A stretch of 63,080 nt of DNA, filler included, from Reclinomonas americana ATCC 50394 (GCA_048213135.1; 24 parts of 24 records of this genome joined end to end with filler, not necessarily neighbours in it); one strand, 5' to 3'. Positions 5,592 through 26,179 are shown, numbered from the whole stretch's first letter. Numbers and translations: made by a program. Notes: generated from the sequence alone by a model not told the origin.

Positions 5592-8500
5592 ATGGTGTTT
5601 GAGAGCTATGTTCACAAGTTGCGTGCGTGATTCTCTCTCTTTCACCTTTTTTCTTATTGATGCCAACTGCGATTGTCTTGCGTTCTTCTGCAGACTTGTG
5701 ATGCGTCTTGCATCCAAGTTCATCAAGAACCTGGGAGCCTCTGACTTGTCACTGTCGTTTGGCGGTGGCGACATTGCACTGGGTGATTTGGAGTTCAATG
5801 AGGCGGTGGTGTCTGAGGCGCTGCAGGGCGCCTACCCGTTCCGTTGCATCAGCGGGCGCATCAAGCGTGCGTGTGCCAAGGTCTCTTGGCGCGCCATCCT
5901 GTCGACTCCCATTGAGGTGTCGGTCGAGTCAGTGGAGTTGGTGCTGGGACCCGTCACTGAGCCGCCTGAATATGCGTCGCCGCCGCCCACGCCTGACTCG
6001 GCACGCAAGGATCCCGGCAAAGAAGACAAGGGTGCGTCCTCTCATCCTCCACTCCCCGCTCTTTGGTTTTTTTTATCTTAATCGTCGCTGGTGCTGCAGG
6101 CGATCCTGGTATGCTGTTGAAGATTGCCACAAACGTGCAGCTCAAGATCAACAATGTGGTGATCAAGTACGTGGACGGGCCGCGAAGTCTCCTCATCGGA
6201 CTCGGTTCTGTGAGCTCGTGGGCTGCCAATCCCGACTTTGAGCCGGCCTACATTGTTTCGTGCGATGCGTCACAGGTCGTGCGTGTGTGTGTGTGTGTCG
6301 GGCGCCTCTCACACATGCACAGATGCCGTCCGGGCCGAATCACCAAATCAACCGCGTGATCAACATCGACAGCCTGTCGGTGTCCATTCGCGACGAAACT
6401 CATCCCGTCGACGGAGCTCAAGGTGAGTGCGAGTGTGTCTTTCCCTGTTGAATTCACTTTCAGCACCTCACTCTCCCCTACCCCTGTGCACAGAGACGGT
6501 GCTGCGGAGAACATCGCTGCAGGTGCGCATGGAAATCTACTTGCGCAACTCAGTAAATCGACCGCGCAACAAGATCTGGGTCGAGGGCGACCAAGTGCGA
6601 GCCAACTTTGACCAGTACCAATGGAAGGTACGTTCTCATTCTTCTTCTTTNNNNNNNNNNNNNNNNNNNNNNNNNNNNNNNNNNNNNNNNNNNNTTAATT
6701 AATTAANNNNNNNNNNNNNNNNNNNNNNNNNNNNNNNNNNNNNNNNNNNNCCGTCCTCGTCACCCTCGTCGTTACGTCGAAAAACTCATTGTCTCTCGTG
6801 CAGGGCTATCGCCAGCAACGTCACACGCGCCCGAATCAGCACTCGCTCCTCGCTTCCGCTGTCTGGTGGTGGAGTTGGATCACTTGTTCGTGCTGAGAAG
6901 ACCACGGAGTGCAAGTGTCACCACACCATCCACCGTCTCTGCGACGGCTGCGGCTGGCGATGCCGACTCGGGGAGCCTGCACTCGGCGCACTCGAGCGAT
7001 CGTGGTTCCATTGCCGGAGCGATGGATCACAGTGCGCAAATCGGATTCTCGTTGCGCGTGACGTTTGCAGCGGATGCTCGCGAGGAGACACCGGTGCGTC
7101 GTCGCAGTGGCGTGTCGACACCATCCAAGCTGGGCTTCTCGCAAATATCGAGTCGCTCGCACTCGCCAACGTCGGTACGTGCAAGCAGCACGAACAACTC
7201 TGTTTTTGTTGTTGATTTCTTACCCCGCGGTGATTAGAGCGTGCATGCGGCGTTGGCGGAGGTTGTCGGCCGGATGCCACACATGTCACCAATGGGTGGC
7301 AGTCCGCGACGCTCGCCACGCCTAATGTCCTCCGCGAGTGCTGGATCTGAACCGACCGCTCTGTCATTAGGTTGGTATCTGTGACATTGTTGTGTTGTCT
7401 CTGTGAAGTGTCAGAGTCGTGCGCGTCTGACAGTAGCCGCCACAGATGGTGCAGAGGTGGTACCGCCAACGGTGGAGGTGGTGCAGGAGACATTGTGGGA
7501 GGCGTCGCTGGAGCAGCTGGATCGCTTGCGTGACTTGCTGCTGACGGATCGTACAAATGTCGAGAAACTCCGCGTGTACCGCATCGATCGCGACAGAATG
7601 GAGGCCGAGTTGCGGCGGCGACAGCAAAGCCGACGCAAGAAGAGGCGCAGGAGAAAGATTGCCGACCGCGTGGCGAAGCGCGTCAAGAAACCGAAGATCG
7701 AGTGCTTTGTGGCTCGCCTGCTGCAGCTGTCGGGTTGCACGGTATCCGTGCTGGTGGACTTGGTGTGTGCGACTCGAGTCGTCTGTCTTGTCAAGGATAT
7801 TTCACGTCGCGTGTCTTACACACACACATGCATGTTCGTATACAGGAGTCTCCGGCGCTACATTTGCGTGCCATGGTGGAGAGTGTTCGAGTGCGACTGT
7901 ACGACCATGCGCACGCCATCGCTGTCGCCCGCACTGTCCTGCGTGTACACGACACGATTCATGGAATGGTGCCGATTCTCGTGGGCGACATTATGCACTT
8001 TGTTCCCTTGTGTGTGCCACCACGATTCATGCCGCCACCACCTGCGGCACCGCTTGCGCCGCTGGCTCTGATGCATCGGCGAGTGCGCAGTCCCCTGCAC
8101 GATCCCACGGACTCGGATGAGGACGATGAGTTTGAGGACGCAGAAGAGGATGACGACCAGTCGTCGATGCGACCGCTGCCGACGCCCGCCGCGCACCTGC
8201 CAGACGAACGGCTTGCCTCTGCTTCTGCCTCCGGCACCGGCTCCGCCGCAGGAGAGGGACCCTCGTTGCTGAAGAAATTGGTGTGTTGAGAACGCCTGTC
8301 CACCCGCGCCCTCGTGATCGCATCTACTGAAGCATTTCTGTGGTTGCAGGTTTTCGAGGCCACACTGAACGTGCAAGAGGTCGACCTTCAAGTGACAAAT
8401 GGCGACCGCTCACCGGGTGTTGGTGTGGCTTTGACGGGCCTCCGTGCCGTCCTGTTTTCGCCCAGTGGCGTCACGTGTGCGGGTTTGCCGCCGGCAATCA

Positions 8501-11500
8501 TTGCATCGCTGGAGGCCAGTGGGCAAGAGGAGCACCAGGCTGGAGTGGAGCTCTGCGTGGCGGCTGGACTCATTCGCGTGGTGGAGAGTTGCGTGCACTC
8601 ACCTCACCCTTCTTGTAAAATCCTCTCTCACCGCTGTGCGTTCGTTGGCGTGCAGGCGGTGCGGTCATGGGTCCGGCCGACGACGTGGCGATGGGCGGCA
8701 GTGTATCATCACCGTCTTCATCGTCGGCTGCGTCAGCACTCTCGAGCGGCATCCCACTTACTCCGCTGCTGGAGTGGTCGGCACCTGGCGTGTCGGTGTG
8801 CCTCACCAACTCGGCTCCGCAGTGGACCGCACTGTTGCAGCGCGTTTTCGGCTGTCTCCGTGTGCCAGCCGACGTTGATGTGGCGTCGCCGGCGTGGGAA
8901 CGCCCTGGCACTGTGTCGGCACAATCACCACCGGTCATCATGGTGCAGGGACTGGGCGACGTCGAGCTCCGCGTGAACGAGCGGCACATTCGCGCCATTT
9001 TCCAGCTCATTTACTACGTGCCGCCATTCATCAGCACGGTGGTGTCAGAGGTGTGGCGAGTGTGGGATGCTTTCTCATTCTTGATTGACGCGGGAACTGA
9101 TTGCACCTTGTACTCAGTTCGTCGGCGACCGTGTGGCCGACGATGATGACGAAACCGACCTGCAAAGTGACGATGCGAGGAGTTCGGCCAGTGCGCGGAA
9201 GGAGCCGGACATGACAGCGTTGTCGGTGTCGATGCATCGCATCAGTGTGGCGGTCGACTTGCCCGCATGCTCGCCTGAGGACTTTCAGTTGGACGAGCGC
9301 GAAGGTAGACTGCGTGCGACATGCGATGTGTGTGCATTCTTGGGTCGTTTTCCGTCTATTCACGTATCTTTGCACGCAGAATGCGACCGTGCTGTGTTGC
9401 GCTTCGAGTGTGGTGTGCATCTGACGACAATGGCGATGGTGACGAGTGTGGGAGACGTGGAAGGCCTGATTCAGAATGTGCTCTCGGTTGAGCTGTCGAG
9501 GTTTTTGGTCACATCTTTCCTTGGTGGTCCCTTCTGTGTCGTTGCTGATGTTCCTTTGCTCGCAGATGTGCTATTGCCACTCAAACTGTGACCGCCGCCG
9601 GTGGTCCCGAGCGCTCACTCTCCGCTCTGTTCCCGTGGGCACCGGTTCCGTTCGACGTTGATGTGGCTCTCCGCATGCGACCGCCGCAGCTGCCGGTGCA
9701 GTCGCAGCAGATTACCGACGTTGTGGTGACTGGCGCGCACGCGTTTACGCTGGTGGTGGGTCTCGAGACCGCGGAACATGCCAGTCTCTTGTATCGCGCC
9801 GGCAGTGCCGTGTGGTGCGTAGTTTTTCGACCTATCTGTTTGCTTGTCTGTCGTCGTTGGTGGCTCCGTGCACTGATGATTCCGTATTCATACGTGTATC
9901 AGCTCGCTCTTTGAGCCGTTTACCGAGGACGAGGAACCAGCGTCACCCTGTCCAGTGGTGGCGTCGCAGCTCACGAGTTGCGTGGTGTCTTCTCTCGAAC
10001 AATTCTCGCGAGACCTGGCTACTGACACCGCGTGCGCAGATGTGGTGGTCAACATGGCGTCGCTGCGACTGGTTGTCCTGCTGTCGACGCCGGCCACGGA
10101 TTCGTATGATGTGGAGCTGACGACCACGGACTTGCGGCTCGACTTGGTGCTGCAAGATTCGCAGGCTCCGTTGGCGCTGTTGCCTGTGTCGGGTGACGGC
10201 AGTGGCCTGTCGCAGNNNNNNNNNNNNNNNNNNNNNNNNNNNNNNNNNNNNNNNNNNNNTTAATTAATTAANNNNNNNNNNNNNNNNNNNNNNNNNNNNN
10301 NNNNNNNNNNNNNNNGTGTCTCTCTCTCTCTCTTCTTTAGCCTTCCCGACTTGCATGCCCACTGATCTTGTTGTGTCTCGTAGTGTCATGGCCACCGTTG
10401 GCGACGTTGGCGTGCGAATCAGTGATCGCATTGTCGACTGTGCCGAAGCCATTGTCACTCTGCTGCACACACATCCGCCCGACAAGTGGCCGCAGCGTAT
10501 GGGATTCGGCGAGGCGCCACAGCAGGGCCAGTCGGCGGAGATGCAGGCCTTGCTGATCCGCGACGCTCGACCAGAGCGCTTCCAGAGCATCACGCTCAAT
10601 CTTGAGCGCTACGTGGTCGTCAACGAGACCGACCAGGACCTGTGGCTTGCGCAGGATGGATCGAGCGATGCTGTTGCTCTGCCGTCCGGCCACCGCATCT
10701 TCCATGCATGGAAGTACGTGCAGGAGCACGCCCACCGTCACGTGCGTGGTGGATCAGACATGCGTGTTGTGTGTGTGCGTTTATCATTCTCACTCCATCT
10801 TCCTGACATTGCACAGTTGCTCCGTGTTCGCATGGCCGACTGCGCCTGGTCGTGTGCGTTTGACATTCGCAAGACGGGTGTGGTTGTGCTGGCCTTTGAA
10901 AAGGCGTCACAGACCACCGACGTGCATGTGACCATCGAGGTGAGAGTGTGGATGGTAGTGGTCTCCCGAGATGATCATGCGGTGCGCTGACAGTGTGCCG
11001 CAGGATGTGCCAATGTATACGGTTATCCGGCTGGTGCCAAACTGCATGTTTGCCAACTACACGCATCTGCCTGTGCGATTCCGAGTGTGGGAGCAGGGTG
11101 TCGGTTTCCGCAGCGTCGTTCTGTGTCCACAGAGGGTCAAGAAAGGTATTTGAGGGAAGAGAGAGACGGATTGATGCAGATCCGAGCTGACATTGCGTTC
11201 GATACACAGATCCAAACGACGAAATTCCGGGCGCGACCGGCAACGTGCGTGGCCTGTGCATATGGCGTGACGGTCGTCGCCCACCACAGAATCACCTATT
11301 GGACCTGCGAACGGCCCGTCGTGTCGGTGATATGGGCAACTACGTGTGGGGCTCGACGTTGCACGACGCTGCTTCTGCCGCCGCCGCCGCCGCCGTCGTG
11401 TCTTCATCAGCCGCCGCTGGCGGCAGTGGTGGTGTCGCGAGTGATGAAGACGAAGATGGCGACGACAGTCACTGGAGCTCTCCAGTGCAGCTCTCGCTGG

Positions 11501-18011: not shown

Positions 18012-19479
18012 TCAGGCCGCCAACTGGAAGTACTGGCTGCGCTGGCGCAGCCACCGCTCAATCTCGTCGAGATGGGAATGTTTGCTGACCCCTTCCTTGG
18101 AGAGTCCAGCACGCAGCTCGCCGACCTGCCGCAAAGCCTGTTGCAGTGTCAGCCAGGGCACCTCGGCTTCGGTGGTCAGCCGCTCGCGCAACCAGGCCTG
18201 ACCCTTTTGCCAGGCGACCGGGGACATGGCCTGCGGCGACTCCAGCAGCATCAGGCGGTTCGCAAAGGCTTTCAGCCGCTCATCCGTGAACTGCGCGGCG
18301 ATAGCCGGGCGAGCCTCCCATGGCGAAGCGTGCCAGCGGCCGCTCAGGCGCGCGTCTTCGTGCGAGAGGAAGCCGCCACCGTAGAGACTGGCTTCCGGGT
18401 AGGGCGAAGGCTCGCGATCGGCGAAGCGATTTGCCATTGCGGCAGCGAGACTGGCCCGGAATCCGGAATGATCGCGGATCCGGGCGGCGCGCTCGTGGTA
18501 GAGCGCCGCGTCGCGCTGGTCCGGCGGCAGGGCGTGGCAGCCCTGCGCATAGGCCAGCAGGATCGGCTGGGCATTGGTCCGCACCAGCCTGAGCGGGCGC
18601 GGGCCTGGGCNNNNNNNNNNNNNNNNNNNNNNNNNNNNNNNNNNNNNNNNNNNNTTAATTAATTAANNNNNNNNNNNNNNNNNNNNNNNNNNNNNNNNNN
18701 NNNNNNNNNNGATAGCCTGCCGGGTCGATGGTCAGGTCGACCGTCGCCCAGGAGGTCGCGACCGTGGGGTTCGGCGTGATGCCGACGATCGGGCTCAGCT
18801 TCGAGGCGCCGCCGAGGAGAAGGACCTCGCCGCCGGCGAGCATCCGGTTCGGGTTGGCCTTGTCGGCGTTGGCGAGCATCATCGCGACCGTTGCGGGCGC
18901 GAACTGGCGCAGGTGCCGGAACAGGGCGAGCGTCGCTCGGGTATCGGCGAGCGCATCATGTGCTTCGTGCTCGGCCAGCGCGATGCCGTTCGACCGGCAG
19001 ATATCGCCGAGCTTGAAGCTCGGCTTGCCGATCGGGTTTATGGGCACGGTGATGGCCGGGGGCTCCAGCATCGCGACCGCCCTGACCATGGTCAACAGGT
19101 CGGCCCGGCGATGACCGCCAAGCTGGGTCGCGTACGGCGGCAAGAGATGCGTGAAGAACGCGTGCCGCAGCATGTCCTCGTCGAACCGGATCGTGTTGTA
19201 GCCGATCACGGTTGACGGCGCCCAGGCAGACAGCGCCTTTGCGATGGCGATGAGCATTTCCGTGCTCGACATTGGCGCCTGCTCGAGCTGAGCCGGGCCA
19301 ATGCCGGTAGTCAGCAGCGCGCCCGGCGCCGGCACGATATGGGCCGGAAGCCGGCAGCGCAGTGAGAGCTCGCTGAGCGGCTGAAGGTTGTCGTCGCAAT
19401 GGATCAGGGCCGCCTGCAGCGGCACGTTCCACTGCGGTTCCAGGCCCGAGGTTTCGAGATCGTAAACGATATAGGACAT
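18012..19479 (-). CDS. sbcB: Exodeoxyribonuclease I (DEDDh 3'-5' ssDNA exonuclease), split by an assembly gap
   Basis: N-terminal part has YDLETSG, GYNTIRFDE and AHDALADT (Exo I/II/III motifs). C-terminal part has PEASLYGGGFLS..D..FTDERL, typical of ExoI. Confidence 0.85.
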
Positions 19480-19488
19480 CGCCGCCTC

Positions 19489-19947
19489 TCAGTGCCGGCT
19501 CGTTGTGCCGGCTTCGATCGACAGCTTGGTCAGCGTGATCCCGAGCTTGCGCGCGTCGACATGCATGGCGGTCTCGACCATCACCGCCGCATGCGAGCGC
19601 TCCATCTCGTCCTCGTGGAAGATCATCGCCTCATAGGTCGTGATCTTGCGCTCAAGGTCATCCTCGCTCCGGGCGGGCGGTTCGGCGATCATGAAAGCGA
19701 AGAACCGTGCCTGCGCCCTGGCGCCTTCGGCCAGCTGCCGGCCGTTGAGGCCACCGAACTCGGCGTGAACCCGATCACCCTCCTGCTCCAGCAGCATCGC
19801 ATGCGCGGTCGAAAGCTGCCACAGCATGAAGTATCGGGCGGCGTTGTCGCCAAGCTGCTCGTAGGTGCGCCGGTAGCGTCCCAGATCCGCGGCCGTCGGG
19901 CGCGCCTCGTCATCGGCGGCAAACGCCGTTCCATTCGTCTTGCTCAT
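19489..19947 (-). CDS. Hypothetical protein (152 aa)
   Basis: Likely start MSKTNG at 19947; the stop lies about 10 nt before the sbcB start, with GAGG in between. Confidence 0.75.
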   Translation of the reverse strand: MSKTNGTAFAADDEARPTAADLGRYRRTYEQLGDNAARYFMLWQLSTAHAMLLEQEGDRVHAEFGGLNGRQLAEGARAQARFFAFMIAEPPARSEDDLERKITTYEAMIFHEDEMERSHAAVMVETAMHVDARKLGITLTKLSIEAGTTSRH

Positions 19948-20215
19948 TGGATCTATCCGGTCTGGCATGACCCGGAACGGCTCTGTCGGCTCAGGTTCGC
20001 GGGGGTTCCCAGAAGCGGGTTCCGGAATTCGCCTGTCTCTTCCTATGTGGACTGGTCTAAAGCCGTGCGTCTGGCTCAAGCGAAGGCGCTAATCTGGCCC
20101 TTACCGGACTCTGACGATGTCTGCTTGCGGGCAATTTGATCAGCCGGCGGGTCTCCTATGGCTCGTCAGAGTTCTCGCATGCATTTCTAGCAGAGATCGG
20201 AGCGCCAAATGCTCA

Positions 20216-21823
20216 TCAAGGATTTGCGGCATTAAGTACTTCACGAAGTGATTTTATAGCAATTCCATATCCGGTGTTAGATAATCGATATCTTCTTGTG
20301 CCTCGATTTGGCGTGCTTGAGATTTCATAATATGCATAGAAATCTTGATTAAAGTATCTGCTGACGTTGTCTTTGTGTTTTGGCTGTATTAATCGAAAGA
20401 CACTTGAAATAAGCGCCGCAATATCCGTGGTAGTGTAGAATTTTCTGGATTCTTTATTTTCCCATACCGTGAGAAGTGCTATAAGAATCGCTTCCTGCAG
20501 CGCAACCTCGCGCACACGATCGAGCGCCGATATTGCCTTCGGGATGTCGAGATCGAGTCCAGATCCGCCTCCAGCCAACTCGTCGACTTGCTGAAGATAA
20601 GCGTCCACGCTGCCCTCATTACGAATTGTGAGCATATCTGGCAGGTCGGAAATCATATCGAGGCCCATACGCCGCTGCTGACAGTCACGCTCCCGGAATT
20701 GATCAAGCGTAAGGTTGTCGCCAGGTCTGGCTCTCGCCTGTAATCTAGCGTATCGAACTTCTTCGTTAGCAATAACAAATCTTTCGGTGGATGTCCTGCC
20801 GTGTCTCTTCATCGCTTGCCGAAGAAGCTCGACCTCCAGAGGTGATCGGAATCCGGATATGACAATCGGATCAGAGATATGATCCTGCATATACTCGATT
20901 ACTTTCTCAGCGGCGATAGTCGGCATTTGTGTTAATGCCTGCTCAGCAAAGTCGCCGATCGAGGATACATCGCGATAGCCGTGTCGATAATAATAGCTAA
21001 GATGCATAAAATCGCTTGCTTCAACATGAAGGTAACCGAATTTTCGAGCCAGCCTTTGACTCGCCGTTGTTTTCCCCGAACATGTGTATCCAGACAGGAT
21101 AATGTTGGGGCGGTCATCGAAATTAAGCTGGAGCTGCGTCATTGGGACGTCAAAGAAGCCACGGCTTTCAAAGAAATCGAAAAGGGGGCCGAAGGATTTG
21201 CGTCGGAAATCTACTTCGTAGGCGTCGCCAATCGGCAATGCGCCGAATGGCAGCGTATGCCCATCTGGAACGAACCACTTATTGAATGATCGGTTGTCGA
21301 GCCAGGGGCAAAGTTGGTTCGCATCAAACCGATGCTCGGCTTCAACGATCGAGCCTTGCTGCTCACCAGTGAAGATCAGGAATGGTTGATCTACCCGCCA
21401 CACGCGGCGAAAGGCGCTGGGCACGTGAAGTAGAACATCGGACCGCACCACCGCCCGGCGATCATTCCCGGCGCGACGCAAGGCGGCGTCGAGACGAGCG
21501 AAGGTTTGCTCTTCCATCCAGAATTTGACGTCGACACCGGGTACTTCGACGCCATCATGGCTCAGCGCTTCAATCCGGACTGAAGTGTCTTCAAGAATGA
21601 AGGGATGGCTCGCCTCCGAGAAACCAGCTTTGGCGAGCTGAGCTTTGGCGCTTTCGTAGCTGCCGGTCAGAATTTCATCGCGAGAGGATAGCCGCGGCTC
21701 GACATATCCCGCGTGGTAGGTTCGCTGGCGGAACCCCTTGATGCGAACGCGCCGGCCTTCGGCCAGATAGCGAGCGTGCGCCAACTTGGTTTGGTTGCTT
21801 GTGAAGAAGGTAAGCTCACGCAT
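20216..21823 (-). CDS. Fusion of a HAM1/ITPase-like NTP pyrophosphatase, a P-loop nucleotide (NMP/dephospho-CoA-type) kinase and a putative C-terminal winged helix
   Basis: HAM1 motifs FFTSNQTK and FILEDTSVRIEAL..PGVDVK; Walker A IILSGYTCSGKTT and VISGFRSPLE; C-terminal FYTTTDIA..VSRYF..RRYRLSNTG. ATG at 21823 overlaps the upstream stop at 21816-21818. Confidence 0.85.
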   Translation of the reverse strand: MRELTFFTSNQTKLAHARYLAEGRRVRIKGFRQRTYHAGYVEPRLSSRDEILTGSYESAKAQLAKAGFSEASHPFILEDTSVRIEALSHDGVEVPGVDVKFWMEEQTFARLDAALRRAGNDRRAVVRSDVLLHVPSAFRRVWRVDQPFLIFTGEQQGSIVEAEHRFDANQLCPWLDNRSFNKWFVPDGHTLPFGALPIGDAYEVDFRRKSFGPLFDFFESRGFFDVPMTQLQLNFDDRPNIILSGYTCSGKTTASQRLARKFGYLHVEASDFMHLSYYYRHGYRDVSSIGDFAEQALTQMPTIAAEKVIEYMQDHISDPIVISGFRSPLEVELLRQAMKRHGRTSTERFVIANEEVRYARLQARARPGDNLTLDQFRERDCQQRRMGLDMISDLPDMLTIRNEGSVDAYLQQVDELAGGGSGLDLDIPKAISALDRVREVALQEAILIALLTVWENKESRKFYTTTDIAALISSVFRLIQPKHKDNVSRYFNQDFYAYYEISSTPNRGTRRYRLSNTGYGIAIKSLREVLNAANP

Positions 21824-22802
21824 CGTGGCAATGAATTTCGCGACCACAGTTTCTGGGTGTCGTTTGATGGGCATCGCAGCCCATCAAACGAGCGGCTTGC
21901 GCGATCGCGTTCATCTGAGCTGGAGCAGCTAAGCAAAATAGCAATGGCCCGAGGCTAGACATTCCGACGCAGTCGGCGCCTGCTCTCAATAAGGCGTCGC
22001 CTATGCCTGCCAGCGCGCAACCATATTCCGAGCGCTCGGCGCGCTTCCAGGCTGTTTGCTGCATTCGCTCGACGCCTCGGCAAAAGCCAGCGTAGTCCGA
22101 TTCCGCAGCTGATGCGTAGATATCAAAAAGCGCGACGTAGGCTGCTTCGAAGCTGGTGCTTTCGGGGAGTGGTGCTGTTCGCGAGAAAAAATCTATCTCC
22201 TCCTCCTGCGTCTTGGGCGCGATCAAACGAGGGATGCAGATGAGAACCGGCCACTCGGGCATGGCGAGTGCAGGAAGGGCCAGAGGTAGCCGGGAAGGAT
22301 CTGCGCGGGACGAAGGCAGAACAGGCTGACCTTCGTTGCGCTTCCCGACATCGCATATTAGTCCGCCATCAAAATAGGTATTGATGCCGACACCTGACGT
22401 GCCCCCTCGTCCTGACGCGCTGACGAGTTCGACCCTGCTCGCGCCACACCCGTTCAAGATTGCCAGCGCCTCGATCGCGCCAAGACGAATGGCGGTCGCC
22501 GAGCCGAGGCCGACATGGGTCAGCATGTCGCCGAAGATCCGAATGCTTGCTGCTCGCTCCATTCCGCGTGAAATCAGAAAGCCTTCTAGCGCGCCTTGCA
22601 GTTGAGACAACTCAGCGGCCTCCATCGGGCAGCTGCGCTCATCGCGCACTGTTAGGGTCCCCGCCTCGCTCGTCTCGATCTGAGCGGCCGGTCCGTTGAT
22701 CGCGAATCCAATTCCTCCGTTAAGTCGAGGCGACTCTCGGTGCATCGACAGCAACCCGAGATGAATGCGAGGATGCACAATAACATCAACTCTATTGGCC
22801 AC
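21816..22802 (-). CDS. Beta-ribofuranosylaminobenzene 5'-phosphate (beta-RFAP) synthase-like GHMP-family protein
   Basis: PRIHLGL, RLNGGIGFA, HVGLGSATAIRL, GRGGTSGVGINTYFDGGLICDVG and GMSSLGP. GTG at 22802 overlaps the upstream stop. Confidence 0.88.
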   Translation of the reverse strand: MANRVDVIVHPRIHLGLLSMHRESPRLNGGIGFAINGPAAQIETSEAGTLTVRDERSCPMEAAELSQLQGALEGFLISRGMERAASIRIFGDMLTHVGLGSATAIRLGAIEALAILNGCGASRVELVSASGRGGTSGVGINTYFDGGLICDVGKRNEGQPVLPSSRADPSRLPLALPALAMPEWPVLICIPRLIAPKTQEEEIDFFSRTAPLPESTSFEAAYVALFDIYASAAESDYAGFCRGVERMQQTAWKRAERSEYGCALAGIGDALLRAGADCVGMSSLGPLLFCLAAPAQMNAIAQAARLMGCDAHQTTPRNCGREIHCHDA

Positions 22803-23502
22803 TGCTACGCTTCCACTCCGCCTCGAAAAACGCGCTGTACTTCTGTCCAAACAAGGTGTCGGCGGCGACGTGGACGGCGGGCGCGTGCCGGCTTTGACTG
22901 TCGTTAAATATGGGACCCGCAACGACATCATTGTCGCAAATCAGGAAACTGTGCCGCGCTTCGTCATCGAACCGACGTAGCTCTACACGATCAGGGTAAA
23001 TCTTCTGAACAGCGTCGATTTGCGATATAGTGCTGGCCGTGCGGCTCTTGGATTCCTGGTCAAGATGCTCATCATCAGGAATCAGAATTCGAATCTTAAG
23101 ATTTCTGTGCTTGCTGAGCGCAGCAATTAGAACTTTATCATCACTATCTACGTCAAGAAAATCGCGCACAAAGCGATTGCACGATGCCCCCATTACATCG
23201 ACACGAAGTCTGCTTCCTCCCACGAGCTTGCTATAGTAAACCTTGTCGTGTCGATTTGCGAGGAGCGCCTTTATACCCATTCGACGAAACCCATCGAGTT
23301 GCATAATAGGAGGAAGCACGGTGAGATAAGTAAGGAGATATACAAACAGACCAGCGGCAACTCCGCCGACAAACCCGAGCAATTTTACGTCTGTGACATC
23401 GATGGTCCAGTACCAATAGCAAAACCCGGCAGTCAATATGCCGATGATGAACGACCACAGCAGCCAAAAAGGTAAGCGAAAAGTACGAAGATCAAGGCTC
23501 AT
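22792..23502 (-). CDS. Membrane protein with two N-terminal TM helices and a putative PLD-like-fold soluble domain lacking HKD
   Basis: Two hydrophobic stretches, then VDVMGAS..LKIRILIPD..VELRRF..HSFLICD..FFEAEW. ATGA overlap with the methyltransferase stop (23499-23502). The fold assignment is by pattern only. Confidence 0.7.
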   Translation of the reverse strand: MSLDLRTFRLPFWLLWSFIIGILTAGFCYWYWTIDVTDVKLLGFVGGVAAGLFVYLLTYLTVLPPIMQLDGFRRMGIKALLANRHDKVYYSKLVGGSRLRVDVMGASCNRFVRDFLDVDSDDKVLIAALSKHRNLKIRILIPDDEHLDQESKSRTASTISQIDAVQKIYPDRVELRRFDDEARHSFLICDNDVVAGPIFNDSQSRHAPAVHVAADTLFGQKYSAFFEAEWKRSSGQ

Positions 23503-24656
23503 CTTGGAATTCCGACAAAGAGTAGCTCGCGCTTCCGTGTTTTGCTGAGCGCATGGTGATGCGCCGTGGAGTGCACTGAAAATCGAGAAAATCGGCACTG
23601 AAAATGTGCCATTATGTCCGTCTCGCTGGGAACAGCGCCAGAAACATAAGACAGCACAACTATCGAATGACGGTGAGTGTCAATGAATGCGAAAAGCCGA
23701 TCTCTGAATGTTTTCTTTCGTCCCCATTCAGAAAACCAGGGCGGCGGATCGAATTGGCGGATGTCAGACCCGTGGTCGATCAGATCCGGCCATTCCTCAT
23801 AGCGGGTCATACCCTCCAAAAAGTGATAGCGGCGCCAATAATCGTCGCGATTGTAGCGATCCTCACGGCTGACATAGGGGGGGTCGATATATACCAGATC
23901 AAAGCCTGCCGGGATTTCCGTCGCATCGCCCGCGGGAAGGATGGTGGTTGGTAATCCAGAGATGAGCGATGCTTTCGCCAGTTCGTCATAGGCCTGAAGC
24001 GCGTGATGCTCGAAAGTGCGCTCCCAGGTTACCGCGTTTCCGAAGCTGCGGTTGACACCGGTCGCGGTTCGCAAGGCTAGGTTGGCGCGGTGAAATAGAT
24101 TGAATGGCCGCTTCTTTAGACAGGCCTGATAGACCAAATAGCGGAACAAGGATTTGATTTCTGGCTTTTCTGCCCATTTGTTCTCTTGGGCAGCAAAGCC
24201 ATCGAGCCAGGCATTCTCGCTATCCCGGAAGAACATTCCCGCAAAATGCTCAGAAATGGGGCCTATCCGGGGGCCTACTGCCCGCAATCCCGCCTCGACA
24301 CTTCCGCGATCCAGCGCGAGCCGTTCTGCCAATACAGTGCGTGCGACGTCTTCGTTGAAGCGGAACGCGTCGTGATAGGTGACCGTCTTGCGCATAGCCT
24401 TGAACAGCAGGGAAACCGATCCGGTGCCTCCAAAGGCATCCAACACCGTATCGAAGCGCACTGATCCTAGATGTCCGTACATCCAGGTCAGCAATCTACG
24501 CTTGCTGCCGTAATAGCGCGTCGACGGGAAGCGAGAGATTTGATCGGGGACGGGCTCGATTAATTTAAGACGCGGTGCGTCAAGTGGTTCTTCGAGCGAG
24601 CGGTTATCCGTCAGTCGGTTTACATTGCTTCCCACAGCTCGTCCCAACAGCGACAT
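23499..24656 (-). CDS. N6-adenine DNA methyltransferase (D12/alpha-class motif order)
   Basis: RYYGSK, VLDAFGGTGSVS (motif I) and DLVYIDPPY (motif IV). Start uncertain (24656 or 24674). Confidence 0.9.
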   Translation of the reverse strand: MSLLGRAVGSNVNRLTDNRSLEEPLDAPRLKLIEPVPDQISRFPSTRYYGSKRRLLTWMYGHLGSVRFDTVLDAFGGTGSVSLLFKAMRKTVTYHDAFRFNEDVARTVLAERLALDRGSVEAGLRAVGPRIGPISEHFAGMFFRDSENAWLDGFAAQENKWAEKPEIKSLFRYLVYQACLKKRPFNLFHRANLALRTATGVNRSFGNAVTWERTFEHHALQAYDELAKASLISGLPTTILPAGDATEIPAGFDLVYIDPPYVSREDRYNRDDYWRRYHFLEGMTRYEEWPDLIDHGSDIRQFDPPPWFSEWGRKKTFRDRLFAFIDTHRHSIVVLSYVSGAVPSETDIMAHFQCRFSRFSVHSTAHHHALSKTRKRELLFVGIPR

Positions 24657-25143
24657 CAAATCCAGAGATGCCAAGCCGATTCTTGTCTCAAGCGGCTGGA
24701 ATCATACACTTTCATGATGGCGGTGGCGGTGCGCAATATCTAGCGGCCTGACCCCGCAACGCTGCGTCGGGCAGGTTTATCAACTGCGAAATCGGCTTTC
24801 AGTTTGTCGTCGCCGCTGAGGCGCCCCTTAAGACGAGTTGGAACCTCCTGAGCCGGCAAATGCCCGGAAGTGGCGCAGGTAGGGCCATTGCGATGTCCGT
24901 GTTCAGCATCGCGAAGTCGCGGTTTCAAACCAGGTAGCGGATCAGCGGTTCGCCGAGGAGTAACCGCTCCTACGGCTCGCCCTCGGACATCCTCAGCACC
25001 GTTGCGACAGATCAAGACCCAACAGCCCCGTCTGCTTTCGCGGACGGGACCCCCACCTCGGGCACTCCATAGATGTTGAGGAGCGGTTGGGAGTTGCCTC
25101 CACAAGGTCGGCAGGGATTATGCGTTCTGTACGGAGAAACGCA

Positions 25144-25938
25144 ATGACCTCTTTGGCCGCTGTCCTGTCTGTCGATTCTCGTGGCCCTGCCGGGCTTTAC
25201 CTGATGACCGACAGCCGGATCACATGGAAGGGTTACGATGGCGAATGGGACGCCGGTCAGAAGACCTATTTCGCGTCGAACCAACCGCACATTTTTGGTT
25301 TTTGCGGCAATGCGGCCTTTCCGCCTTCTGTGGCCCGTCAGCTAATCGAGCAGATCGAAGCGGGTATCATCGGATCGGGCGATGACCCTGATGTCGTGCG
25401 CGCCGATATATTGGCGGGGTTAGAATGGGCCCGTTCCGCAGCAACGAACAAATTTTTCGATGAATTTTCGCTCTTTCACGGTTATCGCGAGGGATTCGGC
25501 ATGAAATGCAAGTTTCATCTCTGGCGGTATCAATATTTTATGTCAACGGATAAATTATATAACTCTCGAATAGAGCTCGATGCGACAACGTCCTGCCTCG
25601 CTCACATCGACGGAAGCGGCAAAAACACTATTCAACATTTCAGAGATACTGTCGCGCGAGGTGTAGCTGCGAGTACAAGCCGGGCAGCTGTCTGGACCTT
25701 CTACGACGCGCTCCGGTCGGGCAAAGATCGCGCAACCGGCGGAGCGCCACAGCTGGTGGGCTTGTGGCGCGTGGGGCCGGCACAGAGGTTTGGCGTGATC
25801 TGGCAAGGTGCGAGGTATGTCGCGGGGATCAAGCTCCCGAGTAGGTCTAGCTCGGGTACGATTCATTGGTTCGACGACGAGTTCGAGTCGCTCGGACGCT
25901 TGCCGCCTGGCTGGAAAGCGGGCCCTGAACCTGCTTGA
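25144..25938 (+). CDS. Putative Ntn-hydrolase / proteasome beta-subunit-like protein
   Basis: GGAG RBS, then MTSL (Thr at the N-terminus after Met removal), LMTDSRIT, GQKT, GFCGNA, IDGSG and DRATGG, in the order seen in proteasome beta subunits. Confidence 0.6.
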   Translation: MTSLAAVLSVDSRGPAGLYLMTDSRITWKGYDGEWDAGQKTYFASNQPHIFGFCGNAAFPPSVARQLIEQIEAGIIGSGDDPDVVRADILAGLEWARSAATNKFFDEFSLFHGYREGFGMKCKFHLWRYQYFMSTDKLYNSRIELDATTSCLAHIDGSGKNTIQHFRDTVARGVAASTSRAAVWTFYDALRSGKDRATGGAPQLVGLWRVGPAQRFGVIWQGARYVAGIKLPSRSSSGTIHWFDDEFESLGRLPPGWKAGPEPA

Positions 25939-26179
25939 TTTCATCATTGCGCCCACTCGGGCAAAAATCGGAGCACCAAACGTCCGCTTATCGGCAGCGT
26001 CTGCAGGTCAGCTTGTGGCGCAGCGCAGCTCAACATCATTCGTGATACNNNNNNNNNNNNNNNNNNNNNNNNNNNNNNNNNNNNNNNNNNNNTTAATTAA
26101 TTAANNNNNNNNNNNNNNNNNNNNNNNNNNNNNNNNNNNNNNNNNNNNCGAGACGCCGGGCGACCCGGTTGGACTTGGT

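Follow-up and report, generated by a model that had tools for sequence, protein, structure and literature searches.

A conserved four-gene bacterial cassette joining a DNA adenine methylase to predicted C-nucleotide chemistry is a candidate defence system

Positions 20216-24656 of a 63,080-base window from the Reclinomonas americana ATCC 50394 assembly (GCA_048213135.1) hold four head-to-tail open reading frames (ORFs) on the minus strand, which encode, in order, a DNA methylase, a protein with two transmembrane helices (2-TM), a synthase and a fusion protein. By the window we mean the whole stretch of DNA analyzed, which is a chain of about 25 short contigs with 24 N44-TTAATTAATTAA-N44 junctions, located by script. 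The contig carrying the cassette spans window positions 18711-26048 (7,338 bases), and its genuine flanks are 18711-20215 and 24657-26048 only. Because the window consists of joined contigs, the accessory region in which the original prediction placed the block is not readable from the remainder of the window. Low-complexity AG, GT or TC repeats occur at several contig ends, and these repeat-rich ends suggest a fragmented or mixed assembly. The four genes, the domains of the last one and the evidence for each are as follows.

23499-24656, minus strand: gene 1, a Dam-like, D12-class, alpha-type N6-adenine DNA methyltransferase of 385 amino acids (aa) (PF02086, PADLOC MTase_II, PHROG)
22792-23502, minus strand: gene 2, a 236-aa membrane protein whose two N-terminal TM helices precede a cytoplasmic phospholipase D (PLD)-fold domain without the HKD lysine (hydropathy, AlphaFold2 (AF2) model, Foldseek)
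21816-22802, minus strand: gene 3, a predicted phosphoribosyl pyrophosphate (PRPP)-dependent aryl C-glycoside (C-nucleotide) synthase of 328 aa, beta-ribofuranosylaminobenzene 5'-phosphate (beta-RFAP)/ForT family, GHMP-kinase fold (TIGR00144, 6yqq)
20216-21823, minus strand: gene 4, a three-domain fusion of 535 aa (HAM1/inosine triphosphatase (ITPase), nucleoside monophosphate (NMP) kinase, winged helix) (Pfam, AF2 model)
21134-21823, minus strand: HAM1 non-canonical nucleoside triphosphate (NTP) pyrophosphatase domain, gene 4 residues 1-230 (Pfam, Foldseek, alignment)
20564-21106, minus strand: NMP-kinase domain, gene 4 residues 240-420 (PDB profile search, Foldseek)
20219-20545, minus strand: C-terminal winged-helix-like domain, gene 4 residues 427-535 (AF2 model, ESM Atlas lead)

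Each gene begins within the end of the one before it. The methylase stop and the 2-TM start share an ATGA (23499-23502), the TAG stop of the 2-TM gene overlaps the GTG start of the synthase (at 22802) by 11 nt (22792-22802), and the TGA stop of the synthase overlaps the ATG of the HAM1-kinase gene by 8 nt (21816-21823). The three overlaps are exactly those originally predicted, and the four domain calls (DNA methylase, 2-TM protein, beta-RFAP synthase-like protein, HAM1-kinase fusion) were confirmed by family searches and hydropathy. For gene 1 we took the ATG at 24656 as the start; its ORF stays open up to a TTG at 24674. Since the homology of relatives begins near internal starts, the likely products are those of 385, 236, 328 and 535 aa given above. 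The block was also said to be richer in AT than its flanks: with a G+C content of 0.537 it clearly is on one side (0.648 over 1.5 kb), but the 1.4 kb on the other side reach only 0.571. A scan of the cassette contig against Rfam gave no riboswitch or other RNA match at E up to 1, and a promoter and terminator scan, which we set aside, gave counts no higher than those of shuffled sequences. Inspection by eye of 16 regions upstream of the methylase, which included no formal motif search, revealed no family-wide operator motif; the upstream sequence is common only to the close relatives L010, L013 and L015.

To follow the cassette into other genomes we scanned one genome per species with gene 4 and sought its partners by tblastn with the four window proteins, which gave 20 loci. 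Fifteen of these have the order methylase, 2-TM protein, synthase, HAM1-kinase; one is cut by a contig end and four are decayed. A metagenome scan with an alignment of gene 4 returned 150 relatives, of which 80 were kept. The complete set numbers 101 loci, with the near-duplicates L035/L036 and L073/L074 both counted. In 71 loci the DNA upstream of gene 4 extends for 2,950 nt or more, and the cassette is complete and colinear in 62 of the 71; among the 30 loci with less upstream DNA, 28 are consistent with the same order over their visible length. The hosts include Alpha-, Beta- and Gammaproteobacteria, Bacteroidota (Dysgonomonas, Prevotella, Muribaculaceae) and Chlorobiaceae, with a truncated copy (L014) in Helicobacteraceae. 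The synteny across distant genomes on which the original prediction hinged is therefore borne out, and the four-gene association is real, far beyond what chance would give. Read from gene order and overlaps, the four genes are translationally coupled and inherited en bloc.

The nine exceptions comprise four decayed copies (L001, L014, L015 and L019), two remnants made up of synthase and fusion gene (L091 and L096), one copy interrupted by an insertion sequence (IS; L022), and L051 and L053, which have no methylase upstream. In L051 a D12-methylase homologue lies downstream of gene 4 instead, and in L053 the contig ends first; in the short loci L054 and L094 the methylase is likewise downstream of gene 4. 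Between the fusion gene and the downstream methylase, L094 encodes an AAA_21 ATPase with DUF4276 (L094:1536-3397), and L051 has three ORFs of 365-559 aa without clear families (L051:5760-10018).

The cassette is widely scattered and sparse. In a sample of 301 genomes from the order to which Bosea thiooxidans belongs, gene 4 occurs once, in the seed itself; a related query found it in three of 401 genomes in the phylum, the seed being one of the three. When 1.84 billion representative proteins were searched with a profile of the family, 209 were returned at E up to 1e-30, and among the matches listed about 65 are full-length members of the main family. A sister family (P0206 and P0209-P0227, about 520-555 aa) has the same HAM1 and NMP-kinase core and a different winged-helix-like C-terminus; the plasmid search and the sample of 401 Pseudomonadota genomes yielded main-family members only. 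The plasmid search also found the same four genes on Rhizobium plasmids and on Cupriavidus replicons listed as plasmids. DNA near-identical to 20216-24656 is present in public runs of 14 studies, which cover metagenomes from lake, freshwater, seawater, biofilm and silage as well as libraries whose label names a single organism, polyA RNA-seq among them. The host of this copy may be a bacterium of wide occurrence in water, or one that often contaminates samples. In one polyA RNA-seq run (X7) contigs span the whole operon; DNA is possible in such libraries, so these contigs cannot show transcription.

The synthase is the gene whose chemistry can be read most closely from a solved relative. Its best match in the PDB is the complex of ForT with PRPP (6yqq, E 6.9e-19). 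Arg19, Thr106 and Arg135 of ForT are essential for PRPP binding, and its GHMP loop, His99-Ser104, holds the pyrophosphate (PMC8183095). Catalysis requires Glu211, and Lys263, Ser21 and Gln266 are substrate-site residues, according to a second paper (PMC9832568). A HMMER alignment places the PRPP-binding residues and the loop at R12, T103, R132 and H96-S101 of gene 3, and E211, K263, S21 and Q266 at E202, K253, H14 and E256. R12, H14, R132, E202, K253 and E256 are invariant in 18/18 homologues, and the clade has a conserved loop of its own with a Pro-Ser-Ser motif. As the PRPP site and the catalytic base are kept and two of the ForT substrate contacts are swapped, the partner of PRPP would be an aromatic carboxylate other than the pyrazole used by ForT. 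That gene 3 makes a C-nucleotide from PRPP is, on these residues, likely.

Homologues of gene 3 carry the NCBI name 'beta-ribofuranosylaminobenzene 5'-phosphate synthase family protein', and gene 3 passes the family model TIGR00144 (134.3 bits, over a cut-off of 113.5). From the names alone it could be taken for an ordinary methanopterin or folate gene (MptG), with neighbours that are there by chance or through an annotation artefact. It fails, however, the methanopterin equivalog NF040726 (152.5 bits, below the cut-off of 328), and an MptG explains neither the order conserved in 62/71 loci nor the situation in Methylobacter, where a separate copy stands beside Mch. We examined five host genomes (Bosea, Dysgonomonas, Prevotella, Sphingomonas and Methylobacter) with the RFAP-synthase family model and with PF02289 for Mch. 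All five score above the TIGR00144 cut-off. In the first four the operon copy is the only RFAP-family gene and Mch was not found. Methylobacter has two RFAP-family copies, the better of which (176.8 bits) lies 1.3 kb from Mch, with the operon copy elsewhere; the Mch-side copy is 27% identical to the window synthase and lacks both the clade loop and the Trp-Lys...Glu motif. No methanopterin or folate gene occurs in any scanned flank (18 genome and 42 metagenome loci), which agrees with the original expectation that the cassette sits outside such clusters. On the equivalog failure, the Mch data, the flanks and the conserved order we rule out, as far as sequence allows, a methanopterin or folate role for gene 3, and consider an MptG with chance neighbours vanishingly improbable.

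Gene 4 joins two nucleotide-handling domains to a DNA-binding type of fold. It matches Pfam Ham1p_like (PF01725; 40.8 bits, cut-off 22.5, E 2.9e-10) and AAA_18 (44.8 bits, E 2.2e-11), its AF2 model is confident (pLDDT 86.6, pTM 0.85), and mean column identity in an alignment of 16 sequences is 54%. Foldseek matches of the HAM1 domain are PH1917, human ITPA, MJ0226 and KomB of KomBC (8zsg_E), with TM-scores by target of 0.77-0.83. K13, E42 and an E78-D79-T80-S81 motif are invariant (16/16). The C-terminal motif of the domain aligns with TM0159, the only residue-level alignment obtained, and the base-pocket motif reads Phe-Asn-Lys-Trp-Phe where TM0159 has Phe-Gly-Tyr-Asp-Pro. In the original prediction this domain could be a receptor of the Kongming type. 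In KomB, His65 replaces the catalytic Asp and the protein serves as the dITP receptor, according to the Kongming preprint (10.1101/2024.12.20.629578). Because the acidic Glu-Asp-Thr-Ser motif is invariant here, unlike in KomB, we read the HAM1 domain as an active pyrophosphatase, more likely an enzyme that removes a nucleotide than a receptor that senses one, and the receptor idea is not supported.

In a PDB profile search the kinase domain matches the AdkA-like SSO1041 (4.1e-12) and UMP/CMP kinase (1.3e-8), and Foldseek matches it to 3lw7 (TM-score by target 0.86). The Walker A residues G245..G250-K251 and R326, R357, R360, R364 and R366 are invariant in the 16 sequences. Of the proposal that the operon makes, phosphorylates and senses or removes an unusual nucleotide, making, phosphorylating and removing fit the conserved catalytic residues, and sensing by HAM1 is less likely than removal. 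Residues 427-535 have no Pfam match. They are modelled as three to four helices followed by a beta-hairpin, which is the winged-helix pattern, and K484, N486, S488, R489, Y490, F491, N492 and Q493 are invariant at the expected position of the recognition helix. Feature neighbours of this domain in the ESM Atlas all belong to winged-helix families, with scores of at most 0.83, and provide a lead only.

Gene 1 passes PF02086 with 37.5 bits (cut-off 22, E 2.9e-9) and is covered over its whole length by DNA methylase profiles, PADLOC MTase_II PDLC03261 at E 9.3e-35 and a PHROG DNA methyltransferase family at E 7.6e-18; a second such PHROG family matches at E 2.5e-16. All 16 homologues keep D-x-F-G-G-(T/S)-G, the S-adenosylmethionine (SAM) motif, and D-(P/S)-P-Y, which reads D-S-P-Y in two of them. 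The profiles and the intact SAM and DPPY motifs identify gene 1 as a DNA adenine methylase of the Dam-like kind, and DNA methylation itself is predicted from them. Conservation across the 16 homologues is highest in the middle region, presumably the site of the target-recognition domain in alpha-type methylases. A sequence search of the PDB with gene 1 found no solved relative.

Additional ORFs lie near the methylase in some loci. In three related Bacteroidota loci a 67-aa ORF abuts the methylase start (L007:5026-5229, L008:5030-5230, L066:3027-3227), which by reading of the sequence, with no family search, is an XRE-type helix-turn-helix (HTH) protein like the controller proteins of restriction-modification (R-M) systems. 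An extra ORF of 135-174 aa without a Pfam family stands between the methylase and membrane-protein genes at L016:5778-6302, L093:2604-3119 and L048:2346-2753; those of L016 and L093 show weak similarity (25% over 84 aa, E 1e-4). Several metagenome loci have, immediately upstream of the methylase, a DUF3307 protein paired with an ORF of some 220 aa (L064:688-2024, L065:513-1861, L073:1850-3192), which may be a separate two-gene module or an accessory part.

Gene 2 of the window has no match in Pfam, NCBIfam, PADLOC or PHROG. Kyte-Doolittle hydropathy gives two hydrophobic segments, and the AF2 model, built with 15 homologues (pLDDT 84.1), has two long N-terminal helices and an alpha/beta domain. 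The ligand-binding domain of the archaeal regulators TrmBL2/TrmB is the best Foldseek match in the PDB, followed by vaccinia F13, FAM83 DUF1669, Nuc, Zucchini and PLD3, with E down to 3e-8 overall and 1e-5 to 1e-7 for Nuc, Zucchini, PLD3 and F13. Weak PLDc_2 matches (best E 2.7e-4) occur in seven of the 15 members of the family. In an alignment of the 15 sequences S185, D190, G196, P197, F199 and P208 are invariant, and the HKD-like motif is degenerate, with His in 12/15, Lys in none and a spacing that differs from H-x-K-x4-D. As the motif is degenerate and without Lys, the classical PLD phosphohistidine mechanism is unlikely, and on the model the domain is a non-catalytic pseudo-enzyme with a PLD fold. 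The folds of TrmB/TrmBL2 and FAM83 offer a lead to a ligand sensor, with ligand binding putative. The idea of a TM protein serving as membrane effector keeps its structural half, namely two TM helices, to which the non-catalytic PLD-fold domain is now added; the effector role would follow from these. In the ESM Atlas the gene 2 model adjoins DUF5919 clusters, fused to HTH or CAP12/Pycsar-type TIR domains. DUF5919 is not mentioned in the full-text literature searched.

The neighbourhoods of the cassette point toward defence. We scanned 199 flanking ORFs of 18 genome loci with Pfam. In eight of the 18, domains of R-M, of abortive infection (Abi) or of established defence systems lie at a distance of up to about 8 kb: Shedu SduA_C; Z1 with a C5 methylase; Hachiman HamA with a helicase; Schlafen/FRG; AbiEi/Eii; type I R-M; HEPN_AbiV with nSTAND3; and NERD with YefM/YoeB. 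Type I hsdR and hsdM enclose the cassette in L016. The remaining genome loci have a toxin-antitoxin (TA) toxin only (two), mobility genes only (three), a SNF2 helicase only (one) or none of these (four). For the metagenomes, up to three ORFs per side of 51 complete cassettes were taken, and with ORFs under 135 aa and two near-duplicate loci dropped, 137 ORFs of 42 loci were left. R-M, Abi, SIR2 or Schlafen domains flank 10 of the 42, PIN or Fic domains only seven and mobility genes only four. The SIR2_2 gene is a neighbour only, in L075. Together with the gene content, this setting makes it rather probable, as far as the genomic record goes, that the cassette is a defence system.

Within the window's own contig, a fragment resembling SbcB/exonuclease I adjoins the cassette (18711-19479, minus strand); its best PADLOC model is the reverse transcriptase (RT)-associated SbcB (DRT; 1.7e-64). 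A full-length copy of 468 aa lies at L022:6375-7781, with no recognizable reverse transcriptase within 4 kb. The flanking ORFs at 25087-25938 (plus strand, 283 aa) and 19489-20079 (minus strand, 196 aa) have no Pfam, NCBIfam, PADLOC or PHROG match. We rejected these two ORFs and the SbcB-like fragment as parts of the system, since tblastn found a counterpart only in the identical contig L022.

Integrases, relaxases, a type IV coupling protein and Rep are found beside L006, L007, L008, L011, L050, L066 and L085. With mobility genes directly beside several copies, and with copies on Rhizobium plasmids and Cupriavidus replicons, it is conceivable that the cassette is the cargo of a mobile element and protects that element rather than the cell, by pairing an orphan anti-restriction methylase with a module that destroys or mimics host immune nucleotides, for instance dITP-type signals, or sanitizes nucleotide pools. 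A HAM1 domain that is predicted to be active could hydrolyze signalling NTPs, and phage factors are described as suppressing Kongming in its preprint (10.1101/2024.12.20.629578). Counter-defence, however, explains neither the PRPP-dependent synthase nor the membrane protein, and several chromosomal copies, such as L016, have no mobility gene in view. A tblastn search of 50,697 phage records with gene 4 gave no match; in IMG/VR, two family-specific peptide patterns gave 168 pattern matches and no relative; and the methylase is the only one of the four cassette proteins with PHROG relatives. We reject a phage origin of the cassette on the negatives from the phage records and IMG/VR, and we regard mobile-element cargo as unlikely.

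The company that gene 3 keeps elsewhere allows another account, in which the cassette is a small biosynthetic unit for a C-nucleoside or C-nucleotide natural product or a cofactor-like compound with no part in immunity. The synthase would build the scaffold, the kinase would activate it, the HAM1 domain would confer self-resistance, the Dam-like enzyme would N-methylate an exocyclic amine and the membrane protein would export or anchor the product. The nearest solved relative of gene 3 is indeed ForT of formycin biosynthesis, the beta-RFAP/ForT family is known only from metabolite pathways (PMC8183095), and the unusual conservation of the methylase middle region would suit a single fixed substrate. 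Against this, gene 1 matches DNA methylase profiles over its full length (PADLOC 9.3e-35, PHROG 7.6e-18), and two TM helices with a PLD-like domain are not the architecture of a transporter. Tailoring, precursor-supply and transporter genes are missing, the neighbours are R-M, Abi, TA and mobility genes, and the occurrence is very sparse. We consider such a metabolic cassette rather unlikely, and hold to defence as the better account of the same four genes.

Copies of the cassette are also interrupted and lost. Two insertion sites map to the window.

21857-21864, no strand: IS256/Mutator insertion site in copy L022, with an 8-bp duplication, within the final codons of gene 3, upstream of where gene 4 starts (blastn against the window contig)
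22601-22608, no strand: second, different insertion site inside gene 3, in another public run (X8) (contig breaks)

L022 is a metagenome contig 100% identical to the window, in which a 2,715-nt element occupies L022:1275-3989; its transposase matches PF00872 (E 3.6e-122) and inverted ends are seen. In X8 the loose contig ends are mutual inverted repeats with 8 bases in common, and the end sequences are absent from L022. In L001 (Bosea thiooxidans DSM 9653, 6788-9662), the nearest genome with a name, the synthase and fusion genes are 94-95% identical, a 26-aa remnant of gene 2 persists and the methylase is lost; the surroundings (P-type ATPase, ABC transporter, class II ribonucleotide reductase) are housekeeping. 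Two independent IS insertions in gene 3 of near-identical sibling copies, together with the decayed copies, are the turnover expected of a costly accessory system, in a sample that is small.

Such turnover, with tight translational coupling and frequent decay, is also what a selfish addiction module of the toxin-antitoxin kind could produce, in which genes 2-4 would produce a toxic nucleotide or a membrane lesion, the methylase or HAM1 domain would be the antidote, and phage defence would be a by-product at most. TA modules are frequent among the neighbours, and the organization resembles that of R-M systems, which act as addiction modules. Four genes with three activities are elaborate for pure addiction, however, and this account overlaps with defence to a degree that makes the two inseparable by sequence. 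Addiction as the primary role seems to us quite unlikely, and defence is the role that we compare with known systems below.

The claim that the operon matches no named system holds, beyond the methylase model, when checked with PADLOC-DB v2.0.0, a database of 2023: MTase_II is found in gene 1, genes 2 and 3 have no match, and the weak matches are mad2 in the methylase (E 8.8e-4) and dCTPase in the kinase region of gene 4 (E 0.0069). Full-text literature, including a recent preprint (10.1101/2025.09.30.679545), gave no link of the RFAP/ForT family, HAM1-kinase fusions or C-nucleotides to phage defence; subscription journals, preprint supplements and recent catalogues could hold one. As far as checked, the cassette is probably undescribed.

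The individual parts do have counterparts. Gene 3 has the GHMP-kinase fold of the ForT/PyfQ/beta-RFAP (RHP) synthases and keeps their PRPP-binding Arg/Thr/Arg, GHMP loop, Glu and Lys, but differs in failing the MptG equivalog, in the replacement of S21/Q266 by invariant His/Glu and in its setting, an operon of methylase, membrane-protein and HAM1-kinase genes in defence islands rather than a biosynthetic pathway. The HAM1 domain shares with the housekeeping ITPases RdgB, ITPA and PH1917 the fold, the C-terminal motif and, with the Asp a putative assignment, the Lys/Glu/Asp motif, whereas its fusion to an NMP kinase and a winged helix, its base pocket and its rare, accessory occurrence set it apart. 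With Kongming (KomABC) the cassette has in common a HAM1-fold protein, which KomB matches structurally, and nucleotide-kinase chemistry on a non-canonical nucleotide. According to its preprint, KomB is a receptor that has His for Asp and binds a SIR2 effector. The cassette differs in its invariant acidic motif, in lacking genes for SIR2 and adenosine deaminase, in joining kinase and HAM1 in one polypeptide and in a nucleotide that would arise de novo from PRPP. As in R-M, BREX, DISARM and MADS, the methylase is a co-inherited component, here the first gene, preceded by an XRE-like ORF in three loci and located in R-M-rich islands, but the cassette has no restriction endonuclease, helicase, PglZ or ATPase component.

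Small-molecule-activated membrane effectors are familiar from CBASS, Pycsar and Thoeris, where a 2-TM or multi-TM protein carries a ligand-sensing domain. Gene 2 is similar in that its soluble domain, which comes after a short TM hairpin, belongs to a class of ligand-binding folds; unlike those effectors, this domain is a PLD-like pseudo-enzyme and not a SAVED, cNMP-binding or beta-barrel domain, and the cassette has no cyclase or TIR generator. Prokaryotic viperins with their adjacent nucleotide kinases are a further parallel, in that an enzyme makes an antiviral nucleotide analogue and a kinase supplies its phosphorylated form. Viperins are radical SAM enzymes, and their loci lack a methylase, a membrane protein and a HAM1 domain; the enzyme that would make the analogue here is a GHMP-fold C-glycoside synthase.

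We propose that the cassette is a self-contained, mobile and undescribed anti-phage or anti-plasmid system, built on R-M-like logic with nucleotide chemistry in place of a nuclease as its executive arm, and put the probability of this at roughly one in two. Three features of the proteins guide the model. Opposing activities and a DNA-binding type of domain in one polypeptide suggest a switch; the presence of an obligatory methylase suggests DNA methylation as what this switch reads; and a 2-TM protein with a non-catalytic fold of ligand-binding type would be a natural receptor and effector in one. In the model, gene 3 would condense PRPP with a common aromatic carboxylate, 4-aminobenzoate being a candidate, to a C-nucleoside 5'-monophosphate. 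The kinase domain would convert this to the diphosphate, a cellular nucleoside diphosphate (NDP) kinase would produce the triphosphate, and the HAM1 domain would return the triphosphate to the monophosphate. The fusion protein would in this way set the level of the phosphorylated C-nucleotide and bar it from host nucleic acids. Meanwhile the methylase would mark host DNA, and the winged helix would read DNA, probably the unmethylated form of the methylase site, such that entry of foreign DNA tips the balance between kinase and pyrophosphatase. The accumulated C-nucleotide could then bind the PLD-like domain of the membrane protein, leading to membrane damage and abortive infection; an alternative output would be the poisoning of phage polymerases by the C-nucleotide. 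An immune pathway of this general type, with its own C-nucleotide as second messenger or polymerase poison, a kinase/pyrophosphatase toggle and a winged helix that reads methylation, is possible though tentative, and the full chain of steps as written is equally doubtful.

Several points weigh against the proposal. Beyond the binding of PRPP by gene 3 everything is inferred, including the defence role, the identity of the nucleotide and the links between steps. Without regulation, a kinase and a pyrophosphatase that both act on one nucleotide would run a futile cycle, and the regulation proposed above is pure inference. The predicted activity of the HAM1 domain depends on the Asp of the invariant E-D-T-S motif, which is putatively the catalytic Asp of the ITPA motif. 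The methylase could equally be the orphan anti-restriction methylase of a mobile element. No nuclease family is present in genes 2-4 by Pfam, NCBIfam, PADLOC or PHROG, which leaves the cassette without a classical effector, and the DUF5919 connection of gene 2 was not reproduced by Pfam scans of 15 members, for which reason we treat that kinship as a lead only. Marker domains are missing at four of the 18 genome loci and at 21 of the 42 metagenome loci, figures that are counts only, with no enrichment test. Finally, with a PADLOC-DB dating from 2023, 'unnamed' is not proven.

Beyond the cassette itself, we are drawn to the chemistry it may represent. To our knowledge, the C-C coupling of PRPP to an aromatic acid has so far been seen only in pathways to methanopterin and to C-nucleoside antibiotics. 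Several antiviral drugs belong to the C-nucleosides (PMC8183095). Should the cassette prove to be a defence system, it would bring new enzymology to bacterial immunity and point to a natural C-nucleotide not seen before. Enzymatic C-glycoside formation would then have its first known use in immunity, with a new chemical class of immune nucleotide, and the cassette would couple epigenetic self-marking directly to small-molecule signalling. As a compact four-gene case, it would show DNA methylation gating an effector that is not a nuclease, and would assign a PLD-like pseudo-enzyme domain a role. Should it serve some purpose other than immunity, the cassette is still a conserved and unannotated nucleotide-metabolic module on mobile elements, with clear catalytic residues in every domain.

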